Source: an uncultured Acidobacteriaceae bacterium (GTDB taxonomy: Bacteria > Acidobacteriota > Terriglobia > Terriglobales > Acidobacteriaceae). Taken from it: a stretch of 64,000 nucleotides of DNA. The translations under genes and the position numbers were made by a program. The notes beneath the pieces were generated by a model. That model did not search any database and was not told the origin of the DNA. It saw nothing but the letters and a program-made list of their open reading frames with translations. This document shows, piece by piece, positions 1-26,852 of the stretch (positions are counted from its first letter, which is position 1; each line of letters begins with the position of its first letter). Location of the stretch: the NCBI GenBank assembly GCA_963846215.1, contig CAWJVC010000007.1, positions 27,402 to 91,401 on the forward strand, written 5' to 3'.

Positions 1-1065
1 GCATACTTCTCGGCCGGCGGAATGCGAGGCTTCTATGCGCTCCCGCTCATCGACGACCAGGGGCGTCTCGGCATCCTGTCGTTTGAGAGCAGCGATCCCG
101 ACTTCCTCACCGTGGCGCATCTCGAAATCATTAAGGTGCTGGCCGGTCAGGCCACCGTCGCCTTGCGCAATGCGTCGCTCTATCGGGAAGTCCCGTTCAT
201 CAACCTTCTGGAACCCTTGCTGCAACGGAAGAAGCGTTTTCTCGCGATGGAAAAACGTCGGCGCGGATTCATGATCGCTCTTGCCGCTGCCGCGGGGCTT
301 TTCCTCATCTTTTGCCCATTGCCCATGCGCGTGGTTGGAGACGCTACCATAGCGTCGGCACGCTCTGCGCAAGTGTCCGCTGGCGTCGACGGCGTGGTCA
401 AAAGTGTATACGTCCGAGAGGGCGATTTTGTGAAGCAAGGGACCGTTTTAGCTGACCTTGAAGACTGGAACTACCGCGCAGACTTGGCCGCCGCCGAGGG
501 CAAGTACGAAGAAGCCGTTGCTACGATGAATCGCGCTCTGGCTCAAAATGACGGCGCTCTGGCAGGAACCGAGCGAGTCAAAGTGGACTACTCCCGAGCG
601 GAAGTGGACCGCGCTCGCGAACAATTGAAGCGCACATCTATTAAAGCCCCGTTTGACGGAGTCGTAACCACACCTCAGGTAGCGAATTCTGTCGGCCGCC
701 GCCTTGCGCACGGCGATACCTTCGCCGAAATCATCGAGATATCTCCCATCACCGCCGATGTTGCCATCCCAGAGGAAGATGCCACGTTGCTGCGGAGTGG
801 GGAACCAGCTTCCATCAAACTCGAGAGCTTTCCCCTGCGAACTTTTCGAGGCGACGTAACCCTCGTCAGTCCGCAAAGTCAGGTGGAGTCCGATCGGCAC
901 GTCTTTGTTGCCCGCGTCAGCGTTCCCAACTCGAACGGCGCAATCCGGCCCGGCATGCAGGGACAAGGGAAAGTGTCAGTCGGCTGGCATCCCGCCGGTT
1001 ACGTATTCTTCCGCGGCGCCGCCATGTGGGTCTGGGGAAAATTGTGGTCTTGGTTTGGGTGGTAG
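1..1065 (+). CDS. GAF-domain + HlyD-family membrane-fusion protein, 5' end outside window
   Basis: Frame 1 is open from base 1 (ORF track 22..1065). The sequence shows the end of a GAF-like fold (GILSFESSDPDFLT...ATVALRNASLY) and one hydrophobic helix (MIALAAAAGLFLIF). HlyD-type segments follow (VREGDFVKQGTVLADLED, IKAPFDGVV, IRPGMQGQGKV). Confidence 0.75.
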   Translation, partial: AYFSAGGMRGFYALPLIDDQGRLGILSFESSDPDFLTVAHLEIIKVLAGQATVALRNASLYREVPFINLLEPLLQRKKRFLAMEKRRRGFMIALAAAAGLFLIFCPLPMRVVGDATIASARSAQVSAGVDGVVKSVYVREGDFVKQGTVLADLEDWNYRADLAAAEGKYEEAVATMNRALAQNDGALAGTERVKVDYSRAEVDRAREQLKRTSIKAPFDGVVTTPQVANSVGRRLAHGDTFAEIIEISPITADVAIPEEDATLLRSGEPASIKLESFPLRTFRGDVTLVSPQSQVESDRHVFVARVSVPNSNGAIRPGMQGQGKVSVGWHPAGYVFFRGAAMWVWGKLWSWFGW

Positions 1066-1093
1066 CAAGATATTGGCTTTTGGGGAGCCCCTT

Positions 1094-2005
1094 ATGCCGA
1101 AATCCTATTCTCTCGTCCGCACTCTACTTGCAATCTGTGGGATAACACTTTCGCTTTGCGGCTGCAGCTCCAATCCTGTTGCCGCCGACGCGGCTGCTCC
1201 CCTCCCTTCAAAGCCTCCCGCCGAGGCGTCCAGTCAGAGTCAGCCGACTCCTTCGGACTACATCGCGTCTGGGCCCATCGTAGTCGAAAATCAAGTCGAG
1301 TTGGCTGCCCAGCGCGACGGCGTCGTGACGCAAGTCTTTGTGGAAGCCGGCGCGGCTGTAAAAAAAGGACAGATTCTGGCCCAACTCGATGACCGTCAGC
1401 TCACCGCCGAGAAGGATGCGGCCGCCGCTAAGGCTCGCAGCACGGACGCTGACCTTAAGAACTGGGAGGCAAGCGCCAGAGTTGCCCAATCGGCGCGCGA
1501 CCGCGCCGAACAATTATGGGCGGCGAACATCATCGCCAAATCCGAAGAAGAAAAAGCTAAGTATCAGTACGATGCTACCGAATTTGAGGTCGAGCGCCAA
1601 CGGGAGGACCTGCAACAATCGCAACAGACACTTCGATCTCTAGAACTCGAACTGGAGAAGACCAAAGTCACCGCGCCCTTTGACGGCGTCGTCGCCCGGC
1701 GCTATCTTCATGCCGGTCAGCAGGTCGCCAAGAATGATCATCTCTTCTGGATCTCGGCCGTCGCGCCCTTGCGCGTGAAATTTTCTCTTCCTGAAGCCTA
1801 CCTCGGCCGCGTGCGCAAGGGAACAGATCTGATTGTAGTCATGCCTTCCTCTCCTGGAGACATCCATCCCGCCAAGGTCATGCTCGTAGGCCCGGTCGTC
1901 GATCCTTCCAGCGATACGATTGACGTGACCGCAGAATTGCAAGGACCGACCGGCACATTGCGGCCGGGAATGACAGCCAATATCCGCCTGAAGAATCCTC
2001 AATGA
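1094..2005 (+). CDS. HlyD-family periplasmic adaptor, probable lipoprotein
   Basis: Internal ATG at 1094 with GGGGAG 7 nt upstream. N-terminus MPKSYSLVRTLLAICGITLSLCGCSS looks like a lipoprotein signal with a lipobox. It has a coiled-coil (TAEKDAAAAKARSTDADLKNWEAS...) and HlyD beta-barrel motifs (VTAPFDGVV, LRPGMTANIRL). Confidence 0.8.
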   Translation: MPKSYSLVRTLLAICGITLSLCGCSSNPVAADAAAPLPSKPPAEASSQSQPTPSDYIASGPIVVENQVELAAQRDGVVTQVFVEAGAAVKKGQILAQLDDRQLTAEKDAAAAKARSTDADLKNWEASARVAQSARDRAEQLWAANIIAKSEEEKAKYQYDATEFEVERQREDLQQSQQTLRSLELELEKTKVTAPFDGVVARRYLHAGQQVAKNDHLFWISAVAPLRVKFSLPEAYLGRVRKGTDLIVVMPSSPGDIHPAKVMLVGPVVDPSSDTIDVTAELQGPTGTLRPGMTANIRLKNPQ

Positions 2006-4146
2006 ATCTCGCCGAAGTCCTCAACGTCGCGCTTCCCGAGCTGCCGGCTCGCCGCATGAAGGGATATCCTCGGCTCCATCCCAAGCTGATCTCCGGCGAG
2101 CAGATGGAAGGCGGTGTCCCCACTGTGGTGGCGATGATCTCAGGAGACACCTCGGTATTCCGCTTCACCCCGGCCCAATGGAAGCTGGTCGAGTTGTTCG
2201 ACGGAGAACGGTCCTATCGCGAAATTGCAGAGATGTACTCGCAAAGGACTGGTTTCTACTACACCGAGGATGACATTCGGACCTTTTCCGACGGCCTCGA
2301 AGACGAAGGATTCTTCTACAAGACCTCCATCGAACTTAACATCACTGCCAGCCAGAAGCTCTCCGAAGAGCGCAAGAAGCGAGTACGGAAAAAGAAGATT
2401 GATCTGGCGGTCATGACATTTTCCACCTGGGATCCCGATGCGTTTCTCACCCGCCTGCACCACTCCGTCCGCTTTATCTATTCGAAATGGTTCACTCTCC
2501 TGACCTTGGGCGCTTTTGCGCTTATGTTCCTCATCTTTCTGAACGGATGGCGTGAGATCTCGCGAGATACCGTTGAGTATTACAGCTTTATCGACAAAGG
2601 AGCTGCCGACCTGGCGGAATTCTGGCTGCTATTTTTCGTGCTGGGATTCTTTCACGAATCTGCTCACGGACTGACCTGTAAACACTTCGGAGGAGCGGTG
2701 CACAGGATGGGATTCATGCTCATCTACCTGGAGCCAGCTTTCTTCGCCGACATCACCGAACTGTGGGTCTACGGTGGTAGGTGGCCGCGCGTAGCCGGCA
2801 TCATTGCCGGAATCTGGGTCGAGCTTATGTTCTGCGCCGTGGGGAGCATTGTCTGGTGGGGTACCCCAGCCGGAAGTCCCGTTCATGACTTTGCCTACAA
2901 GATCATGTTGATCACCGGCGTAGCCGTGATTCTGCTGAACCTCAACCCCTTGATGAAACTCGACGGCTATTATCTTTTGGCCGAATTAGTAGGTGTGACG
3001 GACTTGAAGGAGAGTTCTACCCAGTATCTCTCCAGTTGCGTGAAGCGCAAATGGTTCGGTTTGCCAGTGGAGATACCCTTCATTCCCCGTCGTCGCCGCT
3101 GGCTGTTTGCCAGTTATGCTGCCATCTCGGGTTTGTACAGCTACATAGTGCTGTTTGCCGCCGTAGATTTTTGCTATAACGTCTGCTCCCGTTTCAGCCG
3201 GGAATGGGCTTTCTTACCCGCGCTCGCGCTGGCTTTGACCATCTTTCGTTCCCGGCTGCGTTCACTCTGGAGATTTATGCGAGATTTCTATTTGGATAAA
3301 CAACAGCGAGTCCGGGACTGGTGGTCCAAGCCGCGTAAGGCTTTGGCCGCTGTCTTCGTCCTGCTCCTCCTGTTCGCACCGATTTGGCGAGAAACGGTTA
3401 CAGGGAAGTTCTTTCTTGCGCCGGAGCAGCGCTCAGTCATTCGCGCCACCGTCCCAGGAGAAATTACCAATGTCTACACCACCGAAGGAGCCTCGATCGC
3501 TGCTGGCGCCCCCGTGGTTCGCCTGCGAAGCCTTAGCCTGGAAGAGGATGCCGACAAATCCAAGTCGGATCTAACCACCGCCGAAGCAAACGCTCGTCAT
3601 GCGGAACTGTCCTATAACGACCTCGGGCAGGCGCGGGCCGAAAGGCTTTCTCAGCAAGAGCGCTATAACTCTGTGTCCAAACAAGTTGCAGCACTCCAGC
3701 TCTCCAGTCCCATTGCCGGGGTTGTTGTCACTCCCCGACTCCAGAGCTTGGTGGGTACCGTCGTTCAGGAGGGAACTGAGATAGCGGAAGTTGAGGGCGT
3801 CCAACGTCTTCAAGCGCGCATCTTTGTTCCCGAATTCCAAATCAGCAAGGTTGTACCGGGGGCGGAGGTCTCCCTGAAGTTGGAATCTTTTTTTAAGCCG
3901 ATTCGGGGACTGGTCGCCTCCGTGATGCCTGCATCGGAGAGCATTGCCGCTGGATTGCTGCAGCAAAAACAGTATGAGGGAACTGCGTCCCCAAAGTACT
4001 ACCTCGCTACGGTTTTAGTGTTCAACTCAGGCGGCCAACTGCGCCCCGGTATGTCGGGAGAGGCCAAAATCGCTGTCGTACGCAAGAGTATCGCGGAATT
4101 CGTAGGAAAGAACGTTCGTGAGTTTGTTCAGCGGAAACTCTGGTAG
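2002..4146 (+). CDS. Fusion protein: PqqD/RRE-like N-domain + M50 (site-2-protease type) zinc metalloprotease + HlyD-like C-domain
   Basis: The ATG at 2002 overlaps the upstream stop (ATGA). aa 40-106 resemble a PqqD-type winged helix (FRFTPAQWKLVELFDGERSYREIAEMY...DIRTFSDGLEDEGFFY). The multi-TM core carries HESAH (2653-2667) and NLNPLMKLDG (2938-2967). The C-terminal ~240 aa has a coiled-coil plus SSPIAGVV and LRPGMSGEAKI, as in HlyD. Confidence 0.8.
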   Translation: MNLAEVLNVALPELPARRMKGYPRLHPKLISGEQMEGGVPTVVAMISGDTSVFRFTPAQWKLVELFDGERSYREIAEMYSQRTGFYYTEDDIRTFSDGLEDEGFFYKTSIELNITASQKLSEERKKRVRKKKIDLAVMTFSTWDPDAFLTRLHHSVRFIYSKWFTLLTLGAFALMFLIFLNGWREISRDTVEYYSFIDKGAADLAEFWLLFFVLGFFHESAHGLTCKHFGGAVHRMGFMLIYLEPAFFADITELWVYGGRWPRVAGIIAGIWVELMFCAVGSIVWWGTPAGSPVHDFAYKIMLITGVAVILLNLNPLMKLDGYYLLAELVGVTDLKESSTQYLSSCVKRKWFGLPVEIPFIPRRRRWLFASYAAISGLYSYIVLFAAVDFCYNVCSRFSREWAFLPALALALTIFRSRLRSLWRFMRDFYLDKQQRVRDWWSKPRKALAAVFVLLLLFAPIWRETVTGKFFLAPEQRSVIRATVPGEITNVYTTEGASIAAGAPVVRLRSLSLEEDADKSKSDLTTAEANARHAELSYNDLGQARAERLSQQERYNSVSKQVAALQLSSPIAGVVVTPRLQSLVGTVVQEGTEIAEVEGVQRLQARIFVPEFQISKVVPGAEVSLKLESFFKPIRGLVASVMPASESIAAGLLQQKQYEGTASPKYYLATVLVFNSGGQLRPGMSGEAKIAVVRKSIAEFVGKNVREFVQRKLW

Positions 4147-4172
4147 GCAAGTTCTGGGAACGCAGTACACTG

Positions 4173-4212
4173 AAAAAGGAAAAGAGAGACCGGCTCCCCC
4201 AGCCAGTCTCTC
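4173..4212 (-). terminator. Intrinsic terminator of the repeat-peptide gene (possibly bidirectional)
   Basis: Hairpin GAGAGACCGGCT (4184-4195) / AGCCAGTCTCTC (4201-4212) with one mismatch and a 5-nt loop. On the minus strand it is followed by TTTTCCTTTTT. It sits between the convergent stops at 4146 and 4236. Confidence 0.7.
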
Positions 4213-4235
4213 CATATCCTTTCACGACAGGCGCC

Positions 4236-4535
4236 TTAAATTTTCTTGGCGGTCGTTACATTCGGTCCGCGCTTCGCGGTCGTGATATTCGGTCCACGCT
4301 TGGCAGTCGTGACATTCGGTCCACGCTTGGCAGTCGTTACATTCGGTCCGCGCTTGGCAGTCGTTACATTCGGTCCGCGCTTGGCAGTCATTACATTCGG
4401 TCCGCGCTTGGCAGTAGTTAGTCCGGGCTGTCCTTCGACGGCCTGGAGAGGTTGAGTGGAGGCTACGTTCGTCGCGATGATGGCCTTCTTGGCCGCCGAC
4501 AGGTTACCGATCAAGGATTTCTTCTGAATCGACAT
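4236..4535 (-). CDS. 99-aa basic tandem-repeat peptide (39-aa leader-like region + 6 x TTAKRGPN[V/I] + TTAKKI)
   Basis: The ATG at 4535 has GGAGGA 7 nt upstream, a GG-N10-GC promoter about 50 nt upstream, and a hairpin plus U-tract after the stop. Differences among the repeat units are mostly synonymous, which supports this strand and frame. Confidence 0.8.
   Translation of the reverse strand: MSIQKKSLIGNLSAAKKAIIATNVASTQPLQAVEGQPGLTTAKRGPNVMTAKRGPNVTTAKRGPNVTTAKRGPNVTTAKRGPNITTAKRGPNVTTAKKI
4239..4413 (-). repeat. 27-bp tandem repeat, 6 full units (4252-4413) plus a truncated unit (4239-4251), in-frame within the peptide ORF
   Basis: The unit is gtcgttacattcggtccgcgcttggca. Units 4333-4359 and 4360-4386 are identical, and the others differ at 1-3 positions. 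Confidence 0.95.
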
Positions 4536-4584
4536 TTTGTTTTCCTCCGTTTTAATTTCGTCCTTGCTACTCGGCTCTATCGTT

Positions 4585-4600
4585 AGCATCCTGCGTGCCA
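4585..4600 (-). promoter_or_regulatory. Sigma-54 (-24/-12) promoter of the repeat-peptide gene
   Basis: The minus strand reads TGGCACGCAGGATGCT. GG and GC are separated by exactly 10 nt and TGGCAC matches the -24 consensus. It is about 50 nt upstream of the ATG and directly downstream of a sigma-54 activator gene. Confidence 0.7.
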
Positions 4601-4711
4601 AAGTCGAACCACGTCAGCCCCAATTTCGAAAGGGAGCGATATCAGTCAGTTACGGGAAGTCGCGCTATAAGGAAGGGAAAAGCCTGGCCATTCAAATGTT
4701 TGGGGCGTATT

Positions 4712-4769
4712 AAATATTAATCTAGCGTGGATGATATTTTAATCCTTACCGAAGCCTAGATTAAAATTT
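4712..4769. promoter_or_regulatory. AT-rich inverted repeat, candidate enhancer (UAS) for the sigma-54 activator
   Basis: AAATATTAATCTAG (4712-4725) and CTAGATTAAAATTT (4756-4769) are inverted copies (13/14). A third related half-site, ATATTTTAATCC, lies at 4734-4745. The centre is about 165 nt upstream of the predicted start site. Confidence 0.35.
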
Positions 4770-6169
4770 CACGCTTTCCCTATCCCATACTTCCTGCAAA
4801 GGTAATGCATCTTCTGCTTGTCGACCTGCAGAAGGCGGGCCGCTCCGATTTTGCTTCCGTCCGAGCGCCGGAGCGCCGCCGTCAGGTATGCCACCTCGAT
4901 CTTTGCGATTTCCTCGTCAAAATTGACCCCACCGTCGGGAATCAGCATGGACTCCTGGCTGGTCGCGCTGCTGTAGATCAGGCGTTGCGGCAAGTGTTGG
5001 ACCTTAACCACCGGCCCATCGACCATCAGCACCAGCCGCTGCACCAGATTTTCCAGCTCTCGAACATTGCCCGGCCATGTGTCTTCCTCCAAAATATGTA
5101 TAACTTCCGGGTCCAACCGTTTTAAGGGAACTTTATTGGATTCGCAGTAAGAGCGCAGAAAATGGTCGAGCAGCAAAGGTACATCCCCGGGACGATCTCG
5201 CAGCGCCGGAAGAACGATCGGCACCACATTGATTCGGTAATACAAATCTTCCCGAAATCGTCCTGCCCGTACCAATCCTTCTAGATCCTCGTTGGTCGCC
5301 GCAATCAGGCGAAAGTCAATCTTCTTGGGAGTGTGCCCCCCGATCCGGGTTACCGCCCGATCTTCTAATACGCGCAGGAACTTCGCCTGCAACGCCAGTC
5401 CCAGAGTCGCAATTTCATCCAGCAGCAGCGTGCCGGTGTGCGCCATTTCGATGTGGCCAGCCCGGGCATTCCTCGCATCCGTGAACGCTCCCTTCTCATG
5501 GCCGAATAGTTCCGTCTCGATCAGGTTCTCCGGCAGCGCTGCGCAGTTAAGACTGACGAACGGCTTCTGCGCGCGCGACCCCAGAGCCACGATGGCCCGT
5601 GCCACCAGTTCCTTGCCGGTTCCGCTTTCTCCCCGGATCAGCACCGTGCTCGTGCTCTCGGCAACTCTCCGGATCGCCTCATAGACCCGCCTCATCGGTT
5701 CGCTGCCCCCGATCAACTCGCAGAACGATTCTCGTTCCACTTGCTCGTCCTGCCTCTGCCGGCACTCGATATCAAACGCGCGCTTTTCCAGCGACCGCCT
5801 TAGTACATCCCGCACTTCCTCAAAGTCGATGGGCGCCACAAAATATTCATCGACCTTGGCGGCGGCCGCCTGCAGGCGCAAATTGCGGCTACTCGACCGG
5901 GTCAGTCCTACAATCACCAGGTCCGGTTCCATCTTGCGCAGTTCGATCAGGGCGTCGATTCCATCCTGGCTGCGCTCGCCCACCGTGTCGAGATCTAGCA
6001 GCACAGCGTCCGGCGCGCGCTTGTGCATCGATACCGTCAGTTCATCCCAGGTCTCCAGCACGACGAGATCGTGCTCACTTGCCAGATAGGCCTCAGCCTC
6101 GGGCCTGACTCGTTCATCGGTCGTTACGATAACGACGGCGTATCGCTCTCCTTCTGTGCGTGGAGTCAT
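4769..6169 (-). CDS. Sigma-54-dependent response regulator (NtrC family enhancer-binding protein)
   Basis: It has a receiver-like N-domain (DAVLLDLD), an AAA+ core with GESGTGKE, a GAFTDA loop (GAFTGA variant) and RELENLV, and a C-terminal Fis-type HTH (AARLLQVDKQKMHYLCRKYGI). Confidence 0.9.
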   Translation of the reverse strand: MTPRTEGERYAVVIVTTDERVRPEAEAYLASEHDLVVLETWDELTVSMHKRAPDAVLLDLDTVGERSQDGIDALIELRKMEPDLVIVGLTRSSSRNLRLQAAAAKVDEYFVAPIDFEEVRDVLRRSLEKRAFDIECRQRQDEQVERESFCELIGGSEPMRRVYEAIRRVAESTSTVLIRGESGTGKELVARAIVALGSRAQKPFVSLNCAALPENLIETELFGHEKGAFTDARNARAGHIEMAHTGTLLLDEIATLGLALQAKFLRVLEDRAVTRIGGHTPKKIDFRLIAATNEDLEGLVRAGRFREDLYYRINVVPIVLPALRDRPGDVPLLLDHFLRSYCESNKVPLKRLDPEVIHILEEDTWPGNVRELENLVQRLVLMVDGPVVKVQHLPQRLIYSSATSQESMLIPDGGVNFDEEIAKIEVAYLTAALRRSDGSKIGAARLLQVDKQKMHYLCRKYGIGKA

Positions 6170-6464
6170 GGTCCCTCCCCTTTTGCGGCGGCCCCGATTA
6201 TGTCAAAAATTCGACCCTGCAGGATGAATTATTTATTCTTTTTTCTATCGTGTCAGTGCCCTCGTTGATCGTCATACCGAGCGGACGTTTTTGCGCAACG
6301 TGAAAGCTCGGCCGGCCGCGCGAAGCGGGGCGCTCTCTGCCACGCAATAGCCGGGCATTTGGCTCGTTTCCCGATCAAACGGAGCCGCTCCCAACCCTGT
6401 ATGTACTTGCAAAACCCCGCTCGTTCCCGTAACTTTGGACGCATTCTATCGTCATGCTTCATGC

Positions 6465-6803
6465 ATGACGCCCGGTCCTGCGGAGGAGAGTTTGGACATC
6501 AACGTCCGGAAACGTTCACAAGTGCAGTTGATACAGCTGCGGGGCGCGCTTCGCATGGGGCCTGCCGTCGATACTCTGCGCCAAACCCTGGAGGAGGCCA
6601 TCGCCAATGGGGATACCAACATTGTTATGAACCTGTCGGAAGTTCCCATGGTGGATTCCAGCGGAATTGGCTTGCTGGTGCGCCATCTCGCCTTGATTAA
6701 GCAGAAGGGTGGAAATATCAAGCTGGCGCAGCCCTCTAAATTCGCCGTGCAGACCTTGCGTCTGGTGGGCGTTTTGAACCTGTTTGAGATCTTCGACGAA
6801 TGA
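6465..6803 (+). CDS. STAS-domain anti-sigma-factor antagonist (SpoIIAA/RsbV-like)
   Basis: The motif MVDSSGIGLLV carries the conserved phosphorylatable Ser, and the size is about 112 aa. The start could also be the TTG at 6435. Confidence 0.8.
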   Translation: MTPGPAEESLDINVRKRSQVQLIQLRGALRMGPAVDTLRQTLEEAIANGDTNIVMNLSEVPMVDSSGIGLLVRHLALIKQKGGNIKLAQPSKFAVQTLRLVGVLNLFEIFDE

Positions 6804-6873
6804 CGACTCGGCAGTGGAATCTTTCGCTTAAATCAGATCTCCATGCTTAAAATCGAGAACACTATGAGCCCCT

Positions 6874-7314
6874 ATGTCCGCTGAGTGTGGAAGTAACCCG
6901 GAAAACAGCTCTTTGTCGGAGTTGCTCGACCTGAGCGTTCCCGCCGATTCCGAGGCGATTGCCGCCGTCGTCGATACCGTCTCCGAAACCTTGGAGCGCC
7001 TGCAGGTCCCAGAGCAGAAGCGCTTTGAAATCGCCTTGGCTGTGCAGGAAGCCTTAGCCAACGCAGTCGTCCATGGATGCGGCAACGATCCTGCAAAACA
7101 AGTTCGTTGCCAGTTAAAATCTGACCCACAGGGCCGAATTCTGATTAGCGTCGCCGACCCCGGTCCCGGTTTCAGCCCGGATGTCGTCCCCGACCCTAAG
7201 CGTCGCGAGAGTGTTTATGCCGATCATGGCAGAGGCGTTTACCTCATCCGCCAGCTTATGGATGAGGTTCACTTCGAGCGCAGCGGCAGCGAAATCCGCA
7301 TGTGGAAATATTAG
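6874..7314 (+). CDS. Anti-sigma regulatory factor, Ser/Thr kinase (RsbW/SpoIIAB-like, HATPase_c)
   Basis: N-box-like EALANAVVHG, G1-box DPGPGF, and GRGVYLIRQLMDEV. It sits immediately downstream of the STAS gene. Confidence 0.8.
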   Translation: MSAECGSNPENSSLSELLDLSVPADSEAIAAVVDTVSETLERLQVPEQKRFEIALAVQEALANAVVHGCGNDPAKQVRCQLKSDPQGRILISVADPGPGFSPDVVPDPKRRESVYADHGRGVYLIRQLMDEVHFERSGSEIRMWKY

Positions 7315-7372
7315 AGCTCACACCGGATCGGACGCTACAGTCCATGTATTTGTGCATGAACACGAGGCGAAA

Positions 7373-7768
7373 ATGAAGTTTAATAAACTTACCCCGAATC
7401 TTGTTGTCCGCGACGTAGAAGCGAGTATGAAGTTCTACTGCGACATCCTTGGCTTTCAGCGTGGCATCACCGTCCCGGATGCGCCGCCCTACATCTTCGG
7501 CTCTGTTACAGCGGGTACGGTGGAGATTTTTTTCAACGACCAGCGCACCGTTGCCGAGGAATATCCCGCCCTCGGCATGAAGCCCATCGGTGGCAGTCTC
7601 ACACTATTTATCGAAGTCGACGGGATTGAGGAACTGTTCGAAAACTTGCAACGGCACCGCGTCAAGATAACCATGCCCATGAAAGAACAGTTCTACGGTA
7701 TGCGCGAATGTGCCTTCGAAGATCCCGAAGGCTGGATCATTACTCTAGCTCAGCGCATTGTTCCTTAA
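7373..7768 (+). CDS. VOC / glyoxalase-bleomycin-resistance family protein
   Basis: The internal ATG at 7373 gives MKFNKLTPNLVVRDVEASMKFYCDILGF..., a typical VOC N-terminus, and the protein is about 131 aa. The longer ORF from 7181 overlaps the upstream gene. Confidence 0.7.
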   Translation: MKFNKLTPNLVVRDVEASMKFYCDILGFQRGITVPDAPPYIFGSVTAGTVEIFFNDQRTVAEEYPALGMKPIGGSLTLFIEVDGIEELFENLQRHRVKITMPMKEQFYGMRECAFEDPEGWIITLAQRIVP

Positions 7769-7803
7769 CCCCAACCCGCAGAGCAATTTCGCAAACTGAA
7801 ATG

Positions 7804-7834
7804 GAAAAAGGCCGCGACTCACGCCGCGGCCTTT
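7804..7834. terminator. Bidirectional intrinsic terminator
   Basis: GGCCGCG (7810-7816) pairs with CGCGGCC (7825-7831). The hairpin is flanked by AAAAA upstream and TTT downstream and lies between convergent genes. Confidence 0.6.
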
Positions 7835-7888: not shown

Positions 7889-8395
7889 TTATTGAACGTG
7901 GATCATCTTGCCGCTTGCGTCCAATGTTCCGTGCACGCGAACTTTTTTCCCATCATACTGTTTAACCTGATCCTGGTGGTCGATGTCATACGTCTTTCCT
8001 GACTCGTCCTGTAGCACGTACTTATCGCCAGCTTTCATGATCGTTCCGCTGAAGCTTTGTGTACCAGCTGTGGCGCCCGCTGCCGGAGTCTGCGCATCTG
8101 GTGTCGCTTGTCCACCTTGGCTGGGAGTCTGGCTCGGACTCTGGCTGGGCTGAGCCTGAGAATCAGGTGCCTGCTGCCCGGATTGGTCGGCCGTCGGACT
8201 CGTCTGGCTCTGAGGCGTCGTCGCCGGTTGTTGCGCCGTCGGATCGGTTGGTTGCGTGCGTTGTGTCTCTGACGACGAAGCGGGATCGCTCGATGTCGTA
8301 GGCGGCGCCGATTGTGCGTTCAGTGAAACGCCGGCAGTCAGCAGCACAGCAAGTGTGCCAAGGGTCCACATGGACTGAAGTTGCTTTTTCATCAA
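7889..8395 (-). CDS. Secreted protein with a P/T/Q/S-rich disordered region and a small C-terminal beta domain
   Basis: Signal peptide MMKKQLQSMWTLGTLAVLLTAGVSLNAQS. About 90 aa of PTQS-rich low complexity follow, then GTIMKAGDKYVLQDESGKTYDIDHQDQVKQYDGKKVRVHGTLD. Confidence 0.6.
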   Translation of the reverse strand: MMKKQLQSMWTLGTLAVLLTAGVSLNAQSAPPTTSSDPASSSETQRTQPTDPTAQQPATTPQSQTSPTADQSGQQAPDSQAQPSQSPSQTPSQGGQATPDAQTPAAGATAGTQSFSGTIMKAGDKYVLQDESGKTYDIDHQDQVKQYDGKKVRVHGTLDASGKMIHVQ

Positions 8396-9346: not shown

Positions 9347-11796
9347 TTAGTGCCTTCCTCCGCCGCCCGATCCTCCGCGTCCACCGCGATCTCGTCCGCC
9401 GCCGCCCGGCCTTCCGCCGCGTCCGCCGCGTCCGCGATCCCGCCCTCCACCACCGGGCCTTCCACCGCGTCCACCACGATCTCCGCCATGCGGTCGATCG
9501 CCGTGAGGACGATCTCCACCCACACCAACCGGTGCCGCTCCACCTTCACGATTGAAGTTCGGTTCATCATCCGGGAAATCCCCGCCGCCCTCGATCACCA
9601 TCGATCCAGTCAGCACCGGAGCAGGAGCGGATTCCATCTCGGCGCCTGCGCCGTCCGCCGGCACTGCACCATCTCCGCCGCCCATCTTCGCGCGCTGCTC
9701 TTTCAGAATCGCTTTGCGCGACAAACGTATGCGGTTGCCCTCAACGGCCAGCACCTTCACCAGCACCTGATCGCCTTCTTTCAGTTCGTCGCGAACATCC
9801 GCAATGCGATGCTCTGCCACTTCGCTGATATGCAGCAATCCATCCGTGCCCGGAATGATTTCGACGAACGCGCCGAAATCCGCCAGCCGCGTCACCTTCC
9901 CTAAGTATGTCTTCCCAACTTCCGCCGTCGCCGTCAGGTCTCCGATGATCTGCAGCGCCTTCGCCGCCGACGCCTGATCGCTCGACGCAACTTTCACCAG
10001 CCCGGAATCTTCCACATCGATCTTTACTCCGGTCTGTTCGACGATCGAGCGAATCATCTTTCCGCCCGGCCCGATCAAGTCGCGAATCTTGTCGACCGGA
10101 ATCTGTACGGTGTAGAAGCGCGGAGCGAAATCAGAAATCTTCTCGCGCCCCGATGTAATCACTTCTTCCATCTTTCCGAGAATGTGCAACCGCCCGCGCT
10201 TAGCCTGCGCCAGCGCCTCGCGCATAATCTGCGAAGTGATCCCGGCAACCTTAATATCCATCTGCAGCGCCGTGATTCCATCCTTCGTTCCGGCAACTTT
10301 AAAATCCATGTCGCCGTAATGATCTTCCGCGCCCGCAATGTCGGTAAGGATCGCGTACTGATCGCCTTCCTTCACCAATCCCATCGCCACGCCAGCCACC
10401 GGAGCCTTCAAGGGAACGCCTGCATCCATCAACGAGAGCGACGCTCCACAAACGGTTGCCATCGAGGACGATCCATTCGATTCCAGAATGTCCGATACCA
10501 CGCGCATCGCGTAAGGCCATGACTCTTCCGAAGGCAGCACGCCCGAAATCGCCCGCTCTGCCAGGGCTCCGTGCCCAATCTCTCTACGTCCCGCTCCCCG
10601 CATAAAACCAACTTCACCTACCGAAAATGGCGGGAAGTTGTAATGCAGCATGAAGCGTTTCTTGGCCTCGCCTTCGAAGCCTTCCAGGCGCTGCATGTCG
10701 TCGCTGGTGCCAAGCGTGGTCGTAACCAGCGCCTGCGTTTCGCCGCGCGTAAAGATGGCGCTGCCGTGGGTCCGGGGCAGCACTCCCGCTTCAATCCATA
10801 TATCGCGAACTTCGTCGAAGGCGCGAGCATCGGGACGCCGTTTCTTCTCGAGCACTTTTCGCGGAAAATGCGTTCTCGCAGCGTTTCGAAATATTGCTTG
10901 AACTTCGCCAGCGCTTGCTTCGTCATCTTCCGGGATTTCCGCCTGCAACTTCTTCTTTACATCTTTGACCAGCGCGTAGCTCTCCGCTTTCGGATGCTTC
11001 TTCGTATCGAGAGCGTCCGACAAATCCGCGCCCGCTTTTTTCTTCAGCTGGTCGTAATATTTCTGATCGAATTCCGGCGGCGTGACTTCGCGCTTTTTCT
11101 TGCCGGCCTTCTGGCGCAGTTCGTTGATGGCCGTGCAGATCTTCTTGATTTCGGTGTGTCCGAATTCAATCGCGTCGACCACCACTTCTTCGCTCACTTC
11201 TTTTGCGCCTGACTCGATCATCACAATGCCATCCGCAGTTCCAACGACCATGATGTTCAGCAGGCTCTCGCGCATCTCGTCGTAGGTGGGATTGACCACG
11301 AACTGACCACTGACCTGCCCCACGCGTACCGCGCCCAGCGGACCGAGAAATGGGATATCGGAAATCGTCAGCGCAGCAGGAAGCCGCATTAATGCCCAGC
11401 ACATCCGGATCATTGCTCGCAGTCCGCAGACAGCACGAACGTGATGACTTGCGTCTCGCACTTAAATCCCTCGGCAAACATCGGGCGCACCGGCCGATCG
11501 ATCTGCCGGCTCGTAAGCACTTCGCGTTCGCTCATCCGGCCTTCGCGCTTGATAAAGCCTCCGGGGAATCGTCCGCCGGCGTATGTGTATTCGCGGTAAT
11601 CAACCGTGAGGGGGAAGAAATCAATTCCTTCGCGCGGTTCAGGATTCGCCGTCGCGGTGGCGAGCACCACGTTATCGCCCATTCTTACAACGGCTGCGCC
11701 GTGGGCCTGCTTGGCCAGTTTTCCGGTTTCAAACGACATTTGCTTCCCGCCGGCGAGGTCGACGGTGACACTGCTAACTTCTGGTTTCATATTCAT
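9347..11796 (-). pseudogene. pnp: Polynucleotide phosphorylase, reading frame interrupted (true pseudogene or assembly indels)
   Basis: All domains are recognisable: PH1 ([27 protein letters not shown]), PH2 (LPRTHGSAIFTRGETQALV), KH (IRDLIGPGGKMIRSI) and S1 (GKVTRLADFGAFVEI). They are spread over three frames: 11796-11410, a short [13 protein letters not shown] segment, then 11385-9347. The protein ends in an Arg/Gly-rich tail. Confidence 0.9.
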
Positions 11797-19201: not shown

Positions 19202-21580
19202 TTGTTTAGAATAGGGGATTCGTCTAACCTTGGCAGGGGATTCTTGCGCTGGACGAAATTTGCCTTGGAACAGTCCAATCACAAATCCGACGAGTCGGTT
19301 CGAACGGCGCCAACGGTTTATTGGCGCGTAGAAGGCAGCCTGCTCGATCTCACGGTGGTGAAGCCGGTAGCCTTCTTCACCTGGAACGCTCAGACATTTT
19401 CGGAGCGCTTTCGGCGGCGAGGGCTAATTTTCCTAATGGCGGTGCTGCGTCCTTTTCTTTACTCCACCAATCGGAAGTTCGCGACACGGGTGGTGCATAC
19501 GGCGTTACGGGGGGTAACGCGCGATCGACTGGATCTGCTGGGCGAAGAATATTTCCAGTACAAACTAAAGCCCCAGTTGAAGGCGCGGGGAGTGGAGCGC
19601 GTGCAGGAATTGGTGCGCTCAGGTGCGGATGTGGTGCTGGTCAGCCAGGGACTCGAGCACGTGATGAAGCCTTTGGCGTTGCATCTGGGGGTGAAGCGCA
19701 TCGTTGCAAACCGCCTGGAGTTTCGCGATGGGGTGGCGACCGGAAGGTTGCTGGAGCCGATCATTCGTCCGCGCGGGGCGTTCGCGCCGATTCGCGACCA
19801 AAGTCCCGATGGACGGCGGGCTCCGAAGACGTTGGCTCGGCAATTGGATATCACACTGGAAGAATTGAAGGCCGCGGTGATTGAGTCCGAGCGGGAGTCG
19901 CCGGCGCAGGAACGCCCAATTGTTCATTTCGAAGGCAAGCTACAGGAAGCGGGATTTTCAGTACGACGGGCGCTGGCGGATAAGCACGTGATGTTGATCG
20001 GCGTTACCGGGTTTATCGGGAAGGTGTGGCTGGCCAATACGCTGATGCAATTGCCGAAGATCGGTCGAATTTATTTGCTGATCCGGCGGCAGAAATCGAA
20101 TCCGGCGCAGCGGCGGTTTGAAAAAATTGTAGAGGAGTCGCCAGTCTTCGACCCGCTATTCGAGAAATATGGAATTGGGCTGGCGGAATATTTGCGAGAA
20201 AAAGTTGAGGTGGTTGAAGGGGACGTCACGCGCGAAGAGTTAGGACTGGATGCGGAAGTGGCCAGACGGCTGAAGAGAAATCTGGACTTGGTCATCAATA
20301 GTTCGGGATTAACGGACTTCAATCCTGACTTGCGGGATGCCCTAGCGACCAATACAGACGCGGCGATGAACATTCTGGAATTTCTGCGCGCGACGGATCA
20401 TGCGGGTTTACTGCATCTCTCTACATGCTATGTGGCAGGAGAGCGGGACGGACGTGTACCGGAGAAGGTGATCCCAAATTACACGCCGCATCACGTAGCG
20501 AATTTCGACGCCGAGCAGGAGTGGCGGTCGCTGCAGGAATTAATCGCGAAGGCGGAGGCGAAGGCGGAGGGCGCGGATGTTACGGCGGACTTGCGATCGC
20601 AATCGCTGGCCAAGGAACATGCGTCGAAGGCTTTACAGGGCGCGGCGTTGGAAAATCAGATTCGCAAGAACCGGATTCGCTGGCTGAAGACGTACCTGAC
20701 AGACGAAGGAACGAGGCGTGCCAAGGAATTGGGCTGGCCGAATACTTATACGCTGACGAAGAGCCTTGCGGAATCGCTGATTGTGAAGTATGGCAAAGGG
20801 TTGCCGATTGCCGTGGTACGTCCGGCGATTGTAGAGACTTCGGTGGCCAAGCCGTTCCTGGGCTGGAATGAGGGCATCAATACATCGGCATCCCTCTCGT
20901 ATCTGCTGGGGACATATTTCCGACAGTTGCCCTCGAACGAGAGCAAGCGGCTGGACATTATTCCGGTGGATGCGGTCTGCGACGGAATGACGCTGATTGC
21001 GGCCGCGATTGTGGAGCGGCGGCACGATGAGTTGTATCAGCTGGCGACCTCGGCGACGAATCCTTGTGATATGGGGCGGTCGATTGAGCTGACATCGCTG
21101 GCGCACCGTAAACATTATCGGGCGCAGGAAGGCCTGGAATCATGGCTACGGCTGCGATTCGATGCGATTCCAGTGTCGAAGACGCGCTATCAGCGGATGT
21201 CTGCGCCAGCGCAGAAGGCGATTGTGAAATCGATTCAGCGGATTATGGCTCCGCTTCCTCTGAAAAAGACTCCGCTGGTGAAAGCGGAGAGAAGTCTGGA
21301 GCGGCTGGAAAAGTTAATTGAATTATTTGAGCCGTTCATCCTGTTCAATGAGCACGATTTTGCAGCGGACAATGTGGAAAAATTATCGCATGCGCTGGTC
21401 GAGGACGAGCGGGACGAATTTGGCTACAAGGCTCGCTTGCTGGACTGGTGGGATTACTGGATCAACGTGCATATTCCGGCGTTGCGAAAGTGGACGTATC
21501 CTTTGATCGAAGGCAGGCCGCTGGAAGCGCGTCCGGCGCGGAGTTTGGAGAATGGGGAGACGGTGAAGACTGGAACTTAG
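19202..21580 (+). CDS. Fusion: degenerate HAD-IB-like domain + fatty acyl-CoA/ACP reductase (NAD_binding_4 + FAR C-terminal domain)
   Basis: Rossmann motif GVTGFIGKVWL, active-site region STCYV...YTLTK, and a long FAR-type C-terminal domain. The N-terminal ~220 aa is HAD-like (VLVSQGLEHVMKPLALHLG). The start codon is uncertain (TTG at 19202 in the ORF track). Confidence 0.8.
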   Translation: MFRIGDSSNLGRGFLRWTKFALEQSNHKSDESVRTAPTVYWRVEGSLLDLTVVKPVAFFTWNAQTFSERFRRRGLIFLMAVLRPFLYSTNRKFATRVVHTALRGVTRDRLDLLGEEYFQYKLKPQLKARGVERVQELVRSGADVVLVSQGLEHVMKPLALHLGVKRIVANRLEFRDGVATGRLLEPIIRPRGAFAPIRDQSPDGRRAPKTLARQLDITLEELKAAVIESERESPAQERPIVHFEGKLQEAGFSVRRALADKHVMLIGVTGFIGKVWLANTLMQLPKIGRIYLLIRRQKSNPAQRRFEKIVEESPVFDPLFEKYGIGLAEYLREKVEVVEGDVTREELGLDAEVARRLKRNLDLVINSSGLTDFNPDLRDALATNTDAAMNILEFLRATDHAGLLHLSTCYVAGERDGRVPEKVIPNYTPHHVANFDAEQEWRSLQELIAKAEAKAEGADVTADLRSQSLAKEHASKALQGAALENQIRKNRIRWLKTYLTDEGTRRAKELGWPNTYTLTKSLAESLIVKYGKGLPIAVVRPAIVETSVAKPFLGWNEGINTSASLSYLLGTYFRQLPSNESKRLDIIPVDAVCDGMTLIAAAIVERRHDELYQLATSATNPCDMGRSIELTSLAHRKHYRAQEGLESWLRLRFDAIPVSKTRYQRMSAPAQKAIVKSIQRIMAPLPLKKTPLVKAERSLERLEKLIELFEPFILFNEHDFAADNVEKLSHALVEDERDEFGYKARLLDWWDYWINVHIPALRKWTYPLIEGRPLEARPARSLENGETVKTGT

Positions 21581-21647
21581 GCTTCGGCCAGTTGCGTGGC
21601 GCAGAGCTCTTTCGACTTCGCACAGAAAAAGGGAACGGAATTATTGA

Positions 21648-22778
21648 ATGGCGATATTTTTGACGGGATCGACGGGATACATTGGGGCGCATGTGGCGGC
21701 AAACCTGCTGCGTGACGGCGCCGCGCTGAATGTGCTGGTGCGGGCGGCGGATGTGGGCGAGGCGGAAGCGAGGCTGTGGCAGGCGCTGCAGTTGCATTTG
21801 GAGTTCCCGCAGTTCTACGAGTACTTGCAAACGCGGGTGCGGGTTTTTCGGGGAGATCTGACGGATCCAGGATTTGGGTTGGGTCGAGATGAATATGATC
21901 GGCTCGTGCATACGACCGACTCCGTGATTCATTGTGCGGCATCGCTGAATCGCAAGTCCGAGAAGAGTTGTCTGAATGTGAATCTGCGTGGAACCCTGGA
22001 AGTGCTGACGCTGGCCCGGCAAGCCGAGCATTATCATGGACTGAGTCGCTTCAGCCTGGTCAGTACGGTGGCGGTGGCAGGGAAGCGGGAGAACGAGGTG
22101 GTCAGCGAAGACCGATCGATTGACTGGAATCGCTCGGATTACGATCCTTATGCGCGAACAAAAAAATTCAGCGAACATATGATGCGAGTGTTGTTGCCGG
22201 AAACGCCGAAGACGATTTTCCGGCCCAGCATCGTTCTGGGTGACAGTCGATATGCAGAGACCACCCAGTTCGATATGGTGAAGGCTTTTGTGTTTCTGGC
22301 TGGACTGCCGGTGCTGCCGTTTCGTGCGACGGACAAGATCGATATTGTGAATGTGGATTTTGTGGCCGACGCGATCTCAACTCTGCATCAGAAGGAGCAT
22401 CCGCAATTCGACACCTATCACCTTTCGTCGGGAAGGGAATCCCAGACATTTCGAGAGATTACGAAGGCATTAGCGACGTCGCAGAATAAACGGGCGCCGG
22501 TTTTTGTTCCCGTGGCAGAACGTCCATTTGCAGGGTCGGTGAATTTTCTAGCGAATCGCAAAGGGTCCGTCGGGAAAGGCGCGTCGCTGATGAAGGTTTT
22601 CATGCCATATCTGGTGTGGAACACGGTTTTCGATAATACGAGAGTGACCACTGAGTTGGGAAAGAAGCCGGTACCATTTTCAGAGTACTGCTATCCCCTG
22701 CTGAAATTCAGCACGGAGAATCATTTCGAATACAAATATCGACCGTGGCCCGCGGCGGTGGGAGGGTCGGCGGCATGA
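21648..22778 (+). CDS. SDR-family NAD-dependent reductase (thioester-reductase/epimerase-like)
   Basis: [19 protein letters not shown], and YARTKKFSE provides the YxxxK motif. Confidence 0.8.
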
Positions 22779-24184: not shown

Positions 24185-24223
24185 CGGCATCAACTCCTTC
24201 AATACAAATTCCTGTTCAGGTTT

Positions 24224-25894: not shown

Positions 25895-25920
25895 TTGAAA
25901 CGGAATTAGTTGCGAAGAAT

Positions 25921-26760
25921 ATGACGGTAAAAGAAGGAAAATCCGGCGCCGGGTTGGGAAGCTCTTGCGGCGGCACAGCTCTGTCCTGGACGGTCACGGA
26001 CGGGGTGATTGAACTGGCATTGCACCGCGCGCCTTGCAACGAATTGGGGTCCACGTCTCTGGAGCAATTGGAAATTTTCGTGACGGCTTTAGAGAGTATG
26101 CAAAGAGACGCGCACGCTCTCATTATCTATAGCGAGATGAAGCCGGGATTCTGCGCAGGTGCGGATTTACGCGAACTCTATCAGCGATCGCAGGCGATGG
26201 AAAAAGTTGAAGCGGCGCGGGGGGTTCGTGACTTTCTGGAACGCATTCACCGCGTGCTGAATGTGATCGACGCTGCTCCCCTGACCACGATTGCGGCCGT
26301 GCACGGCGTCACATTCGGGGGAGGATTTGAGTTAGCGCTGGCTTGCGATTTAATTATTGCCGACAAGATGGCACGATTTTGTTTTCCGGAACTGAGGTTG
26401 GGATTGATTCCGGGATTTGGCGGAATTCCGCGCTTGAAGCGCGACCTTGGCAATGCCGTGGTGAGGGACCTTTTGCTTACGGGGCGGAGTTTCAATGCGG
26501 CAAAGGCGCAGCAGATTGGACTGGTTAGTCAGGTGGTGGGCGAGGGTGAAGCCTTGCGAGCGGCGCGGGGAACAGCCGCGCAATTGAAGAAATTCGATAG
26601 GGCTACGGCGGCAGCAGCAAAACAATTTATCAAACCGATCCCGCATGAGGAGTTGCGGCGCGAGATTGATCTTTTTTGCGAATTGTTTGCCAAGCCGGCT
26701 GTCGAAGCTGGACTGCGTAAGTTTGTGGAGAGCGCAGACGCGCAACCTTACTTGCCGTAA
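25921..26760 (+). CDS. Enoyl-CoA hydratase/isomerase (crotonase) family protein
   Basis: FCAGADLREL, AAVHGVTFGGGFELALACDLIIA and FPELRLGLIPGFGG. Confidence 0.88.
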   Translation: MTVKEGKSGAGLGSSCGGTALSWTVTDGVIELALHRAPCNELGSTSLEQLEIFVTALESMQRDAHALIIYSEMKPGFCAGADLRELYQRSQAMEKVEAARGVRDFLERIHRVLNVIDAAPLTTIAAVHGVTFGGGFELALACDLIIADKMARFCFPELRLGLIPGFGGIPRLKRDLGNAVVRDLLLTGRSFNAAKAQQIGLVSQVVGEGEALRAARGTAAQLKKFDRATAAAAKQFIKPIPHEELRREIDLFCELFAKPAVEAGLRKFVESADAQPYLP

Positions 26761-26797
26761 GGAGTAGTAAGCGGCGGGTGGCGACCGCGAGTAGAGT

Positions 26798-26824: not shown

Positions 26825-26852
26825 TGGCATTGAGGGAAGCACAGAACATTTT

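Follow-up and report, generated by a model that had tools for sequence, protein, structure and literature searches.

The window analysed here, a stretch of 64,000 nucleotides from an uncultured Acidobacteriaceae bacterium (GenBank assembly GCA_963846215.1, contig CAWJVC010000007.1, positions 27,402 to 91,401 of the forward strand), carries close to its start a gene for a 714-aa protein with three joined parts: a domain with the fold of PqqD and of the recognition element (RRE) of peptides made on the ribosome and modified after translation (RiPPs), the core of a site-2 protease (S2P, family M50), and a periplasmic adaptor protein (PAP) domain. We call this protein the fusion. Two genes for paralogous adaptors precede it on the same strand. 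The three genes and the domains of the fusion are located as follows (TM, transmembrane; AF2, AlphaFold2):

22..1065, plus strand: 3′ part of a GAF-GAF-TM-HlyD gene cut by the start of the window, 347 aa; tail of GAF_2, HlyD_D23, HlyD_3
1094..2005, plus strand: lipoprotein-type periplasmic adaptor, the second HlyD paralogue, 303 aa (TIGR01730, Pfam)
2002..4146, plus strand: RRE-S2P(M50)-PAP fusion, 714 aa (NCBIfam, Pfam, motifs, homologues)
2062..2340, plus strand: predicted cytoplasmic RRE or PqqD-fold leader-recognition domain of the fusion, aa 21-113 (AF2, Foldseek, profile search)
2485..3393, plus strand: predicted seven-TM region of the fusion with the S2P core, aa 162-464; its last helix is the adaptor anchor
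3394..4143, plus strand: periplasmic adaptor domain of the fusion (HlyD/MexA-like) with lipoyl, alpha-hairpin and beta-barrel parts, aa 465-714

The order of the domains in the fusion was confirmed: the RRE/PqqD fold is N-terminal, the S2P/M50 core follows, and the HlyD/MexA-type adaptor is C-terminal. The start codon of the gene overlaps the stop codon of the lipoprotein adaptor gene in the sequence ATGA. Two NCBIfam protease models matched the fusion below their cutoffs. NF041824, which describes the intramembrane metalloprotease of daptide biosynthesis, matched residues 23 to 387 with an E value of 5.9e-43 (147 bits, cutoff 300), and NF058609, the YydH/LiaK epipeptide protease, matched more weakly (E 4e-8; 33 bits, cutoff 225). 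Judged by the first of these matches, the fusion is, in its first two domains, a homologue of the daptide leader peptidase DapP/MpaP. A full-length AF2 model had a mean predicted local distance difference test score (pLDDT) of 64 and a predicted template modelling score (pTM) of 0.37. Residues 470 to 610 were well predicted, and adaptor proteins were the only Foldseek matches of this model.

Modelled by itself, the N-terminal segment (aa 21-113) gave a pLDDT of 90.7 and a pTM of 0.78. In the model three strands (9-16, 19-26, 32-35) are followed by three helices (37-43, 52-63, 69-81; model numbering, to which 20 must be added to obtain the position in the protein), the β-β-β-α-α-α order of a winged helix-turn-helix. 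The six best Foldseek matches in the PDB were the lasso-peptide RREs TbiB1 and TfuB1 with leader peptides bound (TM-score 0.62-0.70, probability 1.0), and the next were the RRE-containing radical-SAM enzymes CteB and SkfB. A profile made from an alignment of the same segment with twelve homologues (18-31% identity) was searched against all PDB sequences. Five of the ten matches, aligned nearly from end to end, were to PqqD or RRE proteins: PqqD 5sxy (E 0.006), TbiB1 5v1u (0.03), PqqD 3g2b (0.19), TfuB1 6jx3 (1.3) and PqqC/D 5vrd. Precomputed matches to the Pfam PqqD family (PF05402) are on record for two distant members of the fusion family.

The membrane region contains the two sequence motifs of an S2P active site. 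The first, HESAH (nucleotides 2653-2667, aa 218-222), falls in a hydrophobic helix extending from residue 203 to 226; the second is NLNPLMKLDG (nucleotides 2938-2967, aa 313-322). In S2Ps this second motif, NxxPxxxxDG (LDG), is the source of the Asp that serves as the third zinc ligand. The residues H218, E219, H222, N313, N315, P316, D321 and G322 were invariant in 29 relatives with 58-76% identity to the fusion, and both zinc-ligand motifs (HExxH and NxxPxxxxDG) were also invariant in homologues with 23-40% identity. When a profile of the membrane core was compared with 177,635 PDB sequences, four matches were obtained at E ≤10, and all of them were S2Ps: the Methanocaldococcus jannaschii enzyme (3b4r, E 0.002), Aquifex aq_1964 (9j82 and 9j83) and Escherichia coli RseP (7w6x). 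The NxxPxxxxDG motif of the fusion aligned with FNLIPLPILDG of the Aquifex enzyme 9j82. A single-sequence phmmer search with the membrane region did not find any match among the PDB sequences. Precomputed Peptidase_M50 (PF02163) matches are recorded for many relatives of the fusion. At the level of sequence, these comparisons support the assignment of the membrane core as a site-2 protease.

Hydropathy, the helices of the AF2 model and the positive-inside rule fit a topology with the N-terminus inside and the C-terminus outside, in which the RRE is cytoplasmic, seven helices cross the membrane and the adaptor is external. The predicted cytoplasmic loops contain at least 22 Lys and Arg residues versus four in the periplasmic ones. 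Both zinc-ligand motifs map to the cytoplasmic ends of predicted helices (helices 2 and 4), and the seventh helix together with the charge distribution puts the adaptor domain outside.

The adaptor domain was recognized by two Pfam families between residues 475 and 646: HlyD_D23 (42.4 bits, cutoff 30) and HlyD_3 (41.4 bits, cutoff 22.2). AF2 placed the helices of its hairpin at residues 511-537 and 541-563, and Foldseek returned MexA, AcrA and MacA with probability 1.0. The NCBIfam model NHLM_micro_HlyD did not match the fusion. The two adaptors encoded upstream are built differently. In the gene at 22..1065 HlyD_D23 scored 98 bits and HlyD_3 68 bits; the complete gene, found on a contig encoding an identical fusion protein, codes for 799 aa. 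Its product consists of two cytoplasmic GAF domains, a Lys/Arg-rich stretch, a single TM helix and a periplasmic HlyD/PAP domain, and we refer to it as GAF-HlyD. The product of 1094..2005 matched TIGR01730 (RND_mfp) with 168 bits (cutoff 94.9) as well as HlyD_D23 and HlyD_3, and has a signal peptide with a Cys (LSLCGC) that reads as a canonical LLTGC in relatives. Over 250 residues the adaptor domain of the fusion is 27% identical to that of GAF-HlyD (E 1e-20), and it is 22% identical to the lipoprotein adaptor.

The protein had been described before from the sequence alone, as a single polypeptide joining a PqqD-like, an S2P/M50 and a HlyD-type part. This original prediction was borne out in all three domain assignments: the N-terminal domain is predicted to be a winged helix, the C-terminal region exceeds the Pfam cutoffs and resembles MexA, AcrA and MacA, and the HExxH and NxxPxxxxDG sequences, given their invariance and the exclusive matching of S2Ps in the PDB, are genuine S2P motifs and not chance occurrences. 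The numbering proposed for the catalytic residues, E219 and D321, agrees with the motif positions in the 714-aa open reading frame (ORF), and the two further HlyD paralogues that had been noticed are real, namely 22..1065 and 1094..2005.

By homology, the fusion is no one-off and belongs to a large uncharacterized family present in several phyla. More than 1,700 homologues came out of a first protein search; the top 120, from Terriglobales and Sulfotelmatobacter, were all full length (710-717 aa) and bear names such as 'putative peptide zinc metalloprotease protein' or 'HlyD family efflux transporter periplasmic adaptor subunit'. With residues 1 to 440 as query, HMMER matched 9,671 clusters (sequence clusters at 50% identity, out of 1.84 billion representatives) at E ≤1e-3, and 641 at E ≤1e-30. 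Among the matches listed, the complete sequences down to about 25% identity were mostly 680-750 aa long, and the named sources included Bdellovibrionota, Oligoflexia, Nitrospiraceae, Verrucomicrobiota and Handelsmanbacteria. When one genome per species was scanned with a pattern, at least 578 proved to carry the fusion. The best 80 of these carriers, all Terriglobia and among them the cultured Granulicella sp. S190 and Tunturibacter empetritectus M8US30, were used to compare gene neighbourhoods (flanks of ±8 kb; fusion identity 43-70%).

The neighbourhood proved to be highly conserved. The fusion gene (80/80) was accompanied by GAF-HlyD upstream in 79 loci and by the lipoprotein adaptor in 78, and a sigma-54 enhancer-binding gene was found downstream on the opposite strand in 71-72. 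Genes for a STAS protein (64 loci) and an RsbW-like kinase (21-22 loci) recurred in the flanks, the former on variable sides, on the minus strand upstream in 36 loci and on the plus strand downstream in 28. All other ORF clusters recurring in more than about 12 loci were antisense shadows of these genes. No ABC, RND, MFS or TolC/OEP gene was conserved in the 80 loci, and the remaining 60 kb of the window, which contain housekeeping and lipid-metabolism genes, encode neither an exporter nor TolC. The Pfam-annotated contexts of seven relatives had variable flanks, with no ABC, RND, MFS or OEP gene adjoining the operon.

Outer-membrane channel genes were found in two clusters from Bdellovibrionota. 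In a Bdellovibrio sp. (locus L085, positions 1-7833) and in a metagenome-assembled genome of Bacteriovoracaceae (L088, 1-7866) the adaptor trio is encoded together with two OEP (TolC-like) genes, and neither cluster contains a pump gene. The two loci also code for a conserved adhesin-like protein of 1012 aa with faint matches to RibLong and pAdhesive_11, which may be cargo of another kind; small peptides of the leader type were not evident in either locus. In a more distant relative (L089, 4064-12238, GCA_936404035.1) genes were found for STAS, GAF-HlyD, HlyD, the fusion and a sigma-54 activator that lacks the receiver domain. The M50-HlyD protein of this locus (P0338, 715 aa) is 30% identical to P0161, a member of the Bdellovibrionota type, and nothing but a short basic ORF, MAKKTLKKAKKLEATKPLTTINLGR, lies in the intergenic gap; it may be a minimal form of the peptide described below.

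Downstream of the fusion, on the opposite strand, there is a small gene with its own regulatory elements and, next to it, a gene for a transcriptional activator:

4183..4213, minus strand: intrinsic terminator, a 13-bp hairpin and a T-run, just 3′ of the peptide gene
4236..4535, minus strand: candidate substrate gene, 99 aa, with (TTAKRGPNV)x7 behind the leader MSIQKKSLIGNLSAAKKAIIATN and a short spacer; convergent with the fusion gene
4586..4600, minus strand: sigma-54 type -24/-12 promoter TGGCACgcaggATGC, 50 nt upstream of the peptide start
4769..6169, minus strand: sigma-54 enhancer-binding protein with an N-terminal receiver (Sigma54_activat 225 bits, AAA_lid_14, Response_reg, HTH_8)

The repeats of the peptide are encoded by a 27-bp tandem array between 4245 and 4420 (Tandem Repeats Finder: period 27, 6.5 copies), the start codon is preceded at 8 nt by GGAGG, and the C-terminus reads ...AKKI. 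In a survey of homologous loci peptide genes were collected with a regular expression for the leader, followed by inspection of the misses, which had diverged leaders (e.g. MxIEKKSLI) or lay on contigs that end early. With the regular expression alone, 61 of the 80 genome loci had a peptide gene in this position (65/84 loci overall); after inspection the number was about 72 of 76 evaluable Terriglobia loci. The pattern TGGCA[CT]-N6-TGC was present upstream of 57 of 68 homologous peptide genes, mostly at a distance of 46-87 nt and with invariant GG and GC, and no sigma-70-like site was found in the region upstream of the peptide gene. The product of 4769..6169 probably activates the peptide gene.

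The two halves of the peptides evolve differently. The leader, 22 residues long, is near-invariant: M-x-[IV]-Q-K-K-S-L-I is followed by K16-K17-A18 (MxIQKKSLI..KKAI.A). The tails differ in almost every species, for example TAK x11, LAKGT x12, PAVAR x14, NPTKL x16 or HPGLQTAK x15. Strong periodicity was found in 45 of 67 tails, with units of 3-16 residues. Ala makes up 21.5% of the tail residues, Lys and Arg 21%, and Asp and Glu 1.6%; the median net charge is +13. The codon differences among the repeat units of 42 arrays were mostly synonymous (708 synonymous and 367 nonsynonymous, i.e. 66% synonymous), which indicates that the units are translated and constrained within a lineage. In several loci (L025, L026, L027, L035, L063, L072, L075 and L083) the tail was basic without being repetitive; repeats are thus common and not obligatory. 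Some Terriglobia loci (L025, L026, L035, L056 and L063) have two leader-peptide genes in tandem downstream of the fusion. A profile of the leader, searched as a 44-aa alignment, matched 367 clusters, almost all from Terriglobales and all named 'hypothetical protein'.

Small peptides with a leader also accompany a distant clade of fusions, which are 750-830 aa long, have a longer hairpin and come without extra adaptors. Small ORFs on the same strand upstream of these fusion genes share the leader [LI]x[VI]EELE[EQ]RIAP, which resembles the daptide leader ELExMEAP. Their cores are hypervariable, of low complexity and often arranged in tandem (HATQAT x n, GYEGQPGNQG x2, runs of SG or HGSKGS), and are neutral or acidic and rich in Gly, Asn, Pro and Ser. 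A scan of metagenome loci found one to five such ORFs in 58 of the 63 evaluable loci, 78 altogether. No pump, channel or second adaptor was conserved in the 80 metagenome loci of this clade, and Pfam and NCBIfam have no family for either the Terriglobia or the ELEERIAP peptides. In both clades, whose leaders are unrelated, the fusion thus goes together with leader-bearing peptides of variable core, and this arrangement is the chief indication that the peptide is the cognate substrate. We infer that the product of 4236..4535 is likely the substrate of the fusion. The original prediction had not noticed this gene.

Some loci of the distant clade have further genes. A protein of about 324 aa is encoded directly downstream of the fusion in 15 of the 80 ELEERIAP loci (L087, 10481-11479; L150, 3448-4515; and 13 others among L091-L170), and a gene resembling 2OG-Fe(II) oxygenases is present in nine loci of the clade (as in L090, 10303-10974). 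Both could be tailoring enzymes. In L146 (562-3885) an N-terminal duplication looks like two tandem RREs separated by a long low-complexity linker.

Beyond the activator gene the window contains two genes identified through the Pfam labels of syntenic loci:

6435-6803, plus strand: STAS anti-sigma-antagonist-like gene
6874-7314, plus strand: RsbW-like HATPase_c_2 kinase gene

By their family labels, these two genes (6435..7314) constitute a cluster-linked partner-switching pair. No histidine kinase gene adjoins the receiver-domain activator in the region 4769-7314. PADLOC did not match the three adaptors, the STAS protein or the kinase to any defence system, and gave only a generic AAA+ match for the activator. 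Further downstream, 7889-8395 (minus strand) encodes a secreted-looking protein of 168 aa with a long low-complexity region rich in Gln, Pro, Thr and Ser and a C-terminal DUF5818. The polynucleotide phosphorylase gene (9347-11796, minus strand) seems to be broken into two ORFs that overlap in different frames (11410-11796, encoding a 128-aa N-terminus, and 9347-11461), which points to a frameshift or else a sequencing error around 11410-11461; the C-terminal tail of the enzyme is long and Gly/Arg-rich (GGDRPHGDRPHGGDRGGRGGRPGGGG...). At 19202-28911 (plus strand) lies a lipid-related run, which may specify a fatty alcohol or unusual lipid pathway: two genes code for fatty-acyl reductase-like proteins (NAD_binding_4, 'male sterility'; one carries a fused HAD domain), two for AMP-binding enzymes and one for a polysaccharide pyruvyl-transferase-like protein.

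Our preferred reading, to which we give somewhat better than an even chance, is that the locus encodes an apparatus for leader-guided maturation and secretion of a peptide. The sigma-54 activator would switch on the small gene for the leader and its cationic repeats. The cytoplasmic RRE of the 714-aa protein would bind the leader, and the adjoining S2P core, with its zinc site on the cytoplasmic side of the membrane, would cleave the peptide. The C-terminal adaptor would join the two paralogous adaptors, one lipid-anchored and the other equipped with cytoplasmic GAF sensors, in a periplasm-spanning sleeve (a hetero-oligomeric ring) that docks on a TolC-type outer-membrane channel encoded elsewhere, through which the peptide would leave the cell. 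For the inner membrane the peptide might pass through or alongside the protease domain, or be carried by an unlinked transporter.

Two parts of this scheme had been anticipated. The original prediction proposed that one protein recognizes and cleaves the substrate, and this logic has a direct precedent in the daptide enzyme MpaP/DapP, in which an RRE is fused N-terminally to an intramembrane S2P. It had also noted that no pump is encoded in the 4 kb then considered. This holds far beyond that segment, in the rest of the window, in the 80 Terriglobia and 80 distant-clade loci and in the two Bdellovibrionota loci. The envelope-spanning role is suggested by the co-occurrence of the adaptor trio in 78-79 of the 80 Terriglobia loci and by the two Bdellovibrionota loci, where the trio is found with two OEP genes. 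That the M50 domain itself is the inner-membrane conduit, as the prediction had suggested, fits the consistent absence of a pump and, by analogy, a proposal made for the protease EpeP. The strongest form of this idea is tentative, and we regard it as rather unlikely. In it the S2P domain would replace an ABC, RND, MFS or PET protein as the inner-membrane partner of the adaptor and the TolC-type channel, and one polypeptide would bind the leader, cleave the peptide and pass it to the periplasmic conduit. The cargo would represent a new class of unmodified ribosomal peptides with conserved leaders and lineage-specific tandem-repeat cores, polycationic and under sigma-54 control in Terriglobia, whose units may be set free as numerous copies of a single short peptide.

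Several observations weigh against the proposed apparatus. With regard to the protein, Pfam Peptidase_M50 (PF02163) scored below its cutoff on the fusion (E 0.0098; 15.7 bits, cutoff 27.2), Pfam PqqD gave no match to the whole protein or to cut-out segments even at E 10, and the assignment of the membrane-domain fold rests on sequence, the full-length AF2 model being poor (pLDDT 64). With regard to the peptide, its gene is convergent with the operon and not co-transcribed with it; no conserved sigma-54 site was found upstream of the adaptor operon, which served as the control for the peptide-gene promoter; four of the 76 evaluable Terriglobia loci had no detectable peptide gene; and the cationic repeats, rich in Ala, Lys and Pro, may resemble the DNA-binding tails of histone-H1-like proteins. 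With regard to export, no outer-membrane channel gene was found in the window or conserved in the Terriglobia loci, no source of energy for translocation is encoded in the cluster, and energy would be needed to move a peptide with a charge of about +13 outward against an inside-negative membrane potential. Our literature search did not find any account of the absence of a pump in this setting or of sigma-54-controlled leader-plus-repeat peptides.

The alternative that survives best is an exporter of conventional design, tripartite or similar to type I systems, to which the fusion adds only the removal of the leader, the transporter (e.g. a MacB-type ABC protein) and TolC being encoded elsewhere. 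The lack of an energy source in the cluster speaks for it, and since no channel gene lies beside the Terriglobia clusters, at least one component must be supplied from another place in the genome. The adaptors characterized so far are all known to work with an energized transporter (reviewed in PMC8277102). An ORF cut off at 820 aa by the contig end, situated two genes upstream on the contig that encodes the identical fusion protein, also counts in favour of this view. However, adaptor genes usually adjoin the gene of their pump, and none was conserved in the 80 Terriglobia and 80 distant-clade loci; the upstream flanks vary among the relatives; and the two Bdellovibrionota loci have kept OEP genes beside the trio, yet no pump. 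On balance a conventional exporter appears rather unlikely.

Less probable still is a signalling device without export. Here the basic protein would act inside the cell, binding DNA, RNA or polyphosphate or having a regulatory role, the RRE-S2P part would set its level by proteolysis, and the periplasmic adaptor-like and GAF domains would sense the state of the envelope or of metabolism. S2P proteases classically take part in signal transduction, and the cluster is rich in regulators (receiver-containing enhancer-binding protein, STAS, RsbW-like kinase, GAF domains). The tails, composed largely of Ala, Lys, Arg and Pro and nearly devoid of acidic residues, presumably share their composition with bacterial H1-like proteins, and neither a pump nor a channel is linked in Terriglobia. 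Three full alpha-hairpin adaptor domains, on the other hand, are hard to explain if there is no channel partner, and the Bdellovibrionota clusters do contain two TolC-like genes. The neutral or acidic cores of the distant clade, rich in Gly, Asn, Pro and Ser, would not bind nucleic acids, and the closest characterized relatives of the protease process secreted peptides.

A fusion artefact, i.e. a frameshift or an assembly error joining a protease gene to a HlyD gene, or a chance HExxH in a hydrophobic anchor, can be dismissed: HExxH is a short motif and the Peptidase_M50 score of the fusion is sub-threshold, but the 710-717-aa architecture was found in all 120 relatives listed, from independent assemblies, and in 80/80 loci at 43-70% identity, it recurs in other phyla at 23-40% identity, and both zinc-ligand motifs are invariant, so that these conservation data rule it out.

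Among known systems the closest to the apparatus that we favour is that of the daptides. MpaP, a fusion of an RRE with an S2P, removes the daptide leader ELExMEAP directly after the final AP (bioRxiv 10.1101/2023.03.08.531785, Ren et al.). Like DapP/MpaP, the fusion combines an N-terminal RRE with an M50/S2P core and is encoded beside small peptides that have a leader. Unlike DapP, which has no adaptor domain and occurs in Gram-positive hosts, it has an additional TM helix, a 250-aa periplasmic adaptor and two accompanying adaptors. Membership in the DapP family itself was considered and rejected, with a score of 147 bits versus the required 300 and no C-terminal Thr cores; no daptide enzymes (DUF-RRE, oxidative decarboxylase, aminotransferase, methyltransferase) are encoded in the window or in the syntenic loci. 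Another M50 intramembrane metalloprotease that acts on a small ribosomal peptide is EpeP (YydH) of the Bacillus subtilis epeXEPAB operon. It is described as processing the peptide for secretion and has been proposed to serve both cleavage and release, with the linked ABC transporter conferring immunity and not export. We detected no RRE in EpeP, which also lacks an adaptor and works in a host with a single membrane. The epipeptide (YydH/LiaK) family was likewise rejected (33 versus 225 bits; no radical-SAM gene in the cluster).

The adaptor part has the lipoyl, alpha-hairpin and beta-barrel fold and the lipoprotein or TM anchor known from MexA/AcrA, MacA, EmrA, HlyD and CvaA. In contrast to the adaptors of tripartite and type I systems, those described here have no linked ABC, RND, MFS or PET protein, and there are three different ones, one of which contains GAF domains. 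Peptidase-containing ABC exporters also couple leader cleavage physically to export. In the colicin V system (CvaA/CvaB) it is a C39 cysteine peptidase that is fused to the pump, whereas here a zinc-dependent S2P is fused to the adaptor. A classical type I or bacteriocin ABC system was rejected: TIGR01843, the model of the type I secretion HlyD, scored 48 bits on the fusion versus a cutoff of 208.65, and no ABC or C39 gene is linked.

S2Ps of the Eep/RseP type mature small secreted signalling peptides in Enterococcus and Streptococcus, the export of which depends on a separate ABC transporter, PptAB. Eep has PDZ domains and neither an RRE nor an adaptor, and its substrates are hydrophobic segments resembling signal peptides, unlike the soluble cationic repeats of the candidate peptides. 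With respect to the substrate the nearest parallels are multi-core precursors with tandem identical cores: those of the cyanobactins, the Kex2-processed fungal dikaritins and the yeast alpha-factor. As in these, one leader precedes identical short units, which are kept within a lineage by purifying selection and differ between lineages, and each unit has a basic residue at which cleavage could take place. Unlike multi-core RiPPs, the peptides have no modifying enzymes, and some of their units consist of no more than three residues (TAK, VAK).

If the preferred reading is true, a common and unstudied family, prominent in soil Acidobacteriota, links RiPP leader peptidases with the tripartite exporters that span the envelope, two fields so far unconnected, and the question arises whether an adaptor-TolC conduit can be fed without an energized pump. 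The peptides would constitute a new family of several hundred 'hypothetical' proteins with a near-invariant leader and tails that evolve fast between species, and their control by sigma-54 points to a conditional function, perhaps in competition or signalling, in bacteria that are abundant in soil. The names currently assigned by automatic annotation hide the fused nature of the protein, and the peptide genes are missed. Our search of the literature, including adaptor reviews of 2021 and 2026, did not find any account of S2P/M50-HlyD fusions or of GAF-HlyD proteins. RRE-S2P fusions (DapP/MpaP), the participation of M50 proteases in peptide maturation (EpeP, TglG, Eep) and periplasmic adaptors were each known before; the search did not turn up a description of the covalent union of all three domains, the company of a GAF-adaptor and a lipoprotein adaptor without a linked pump, or the association with sigma-54-controlled peptides made of a leader and repeats.

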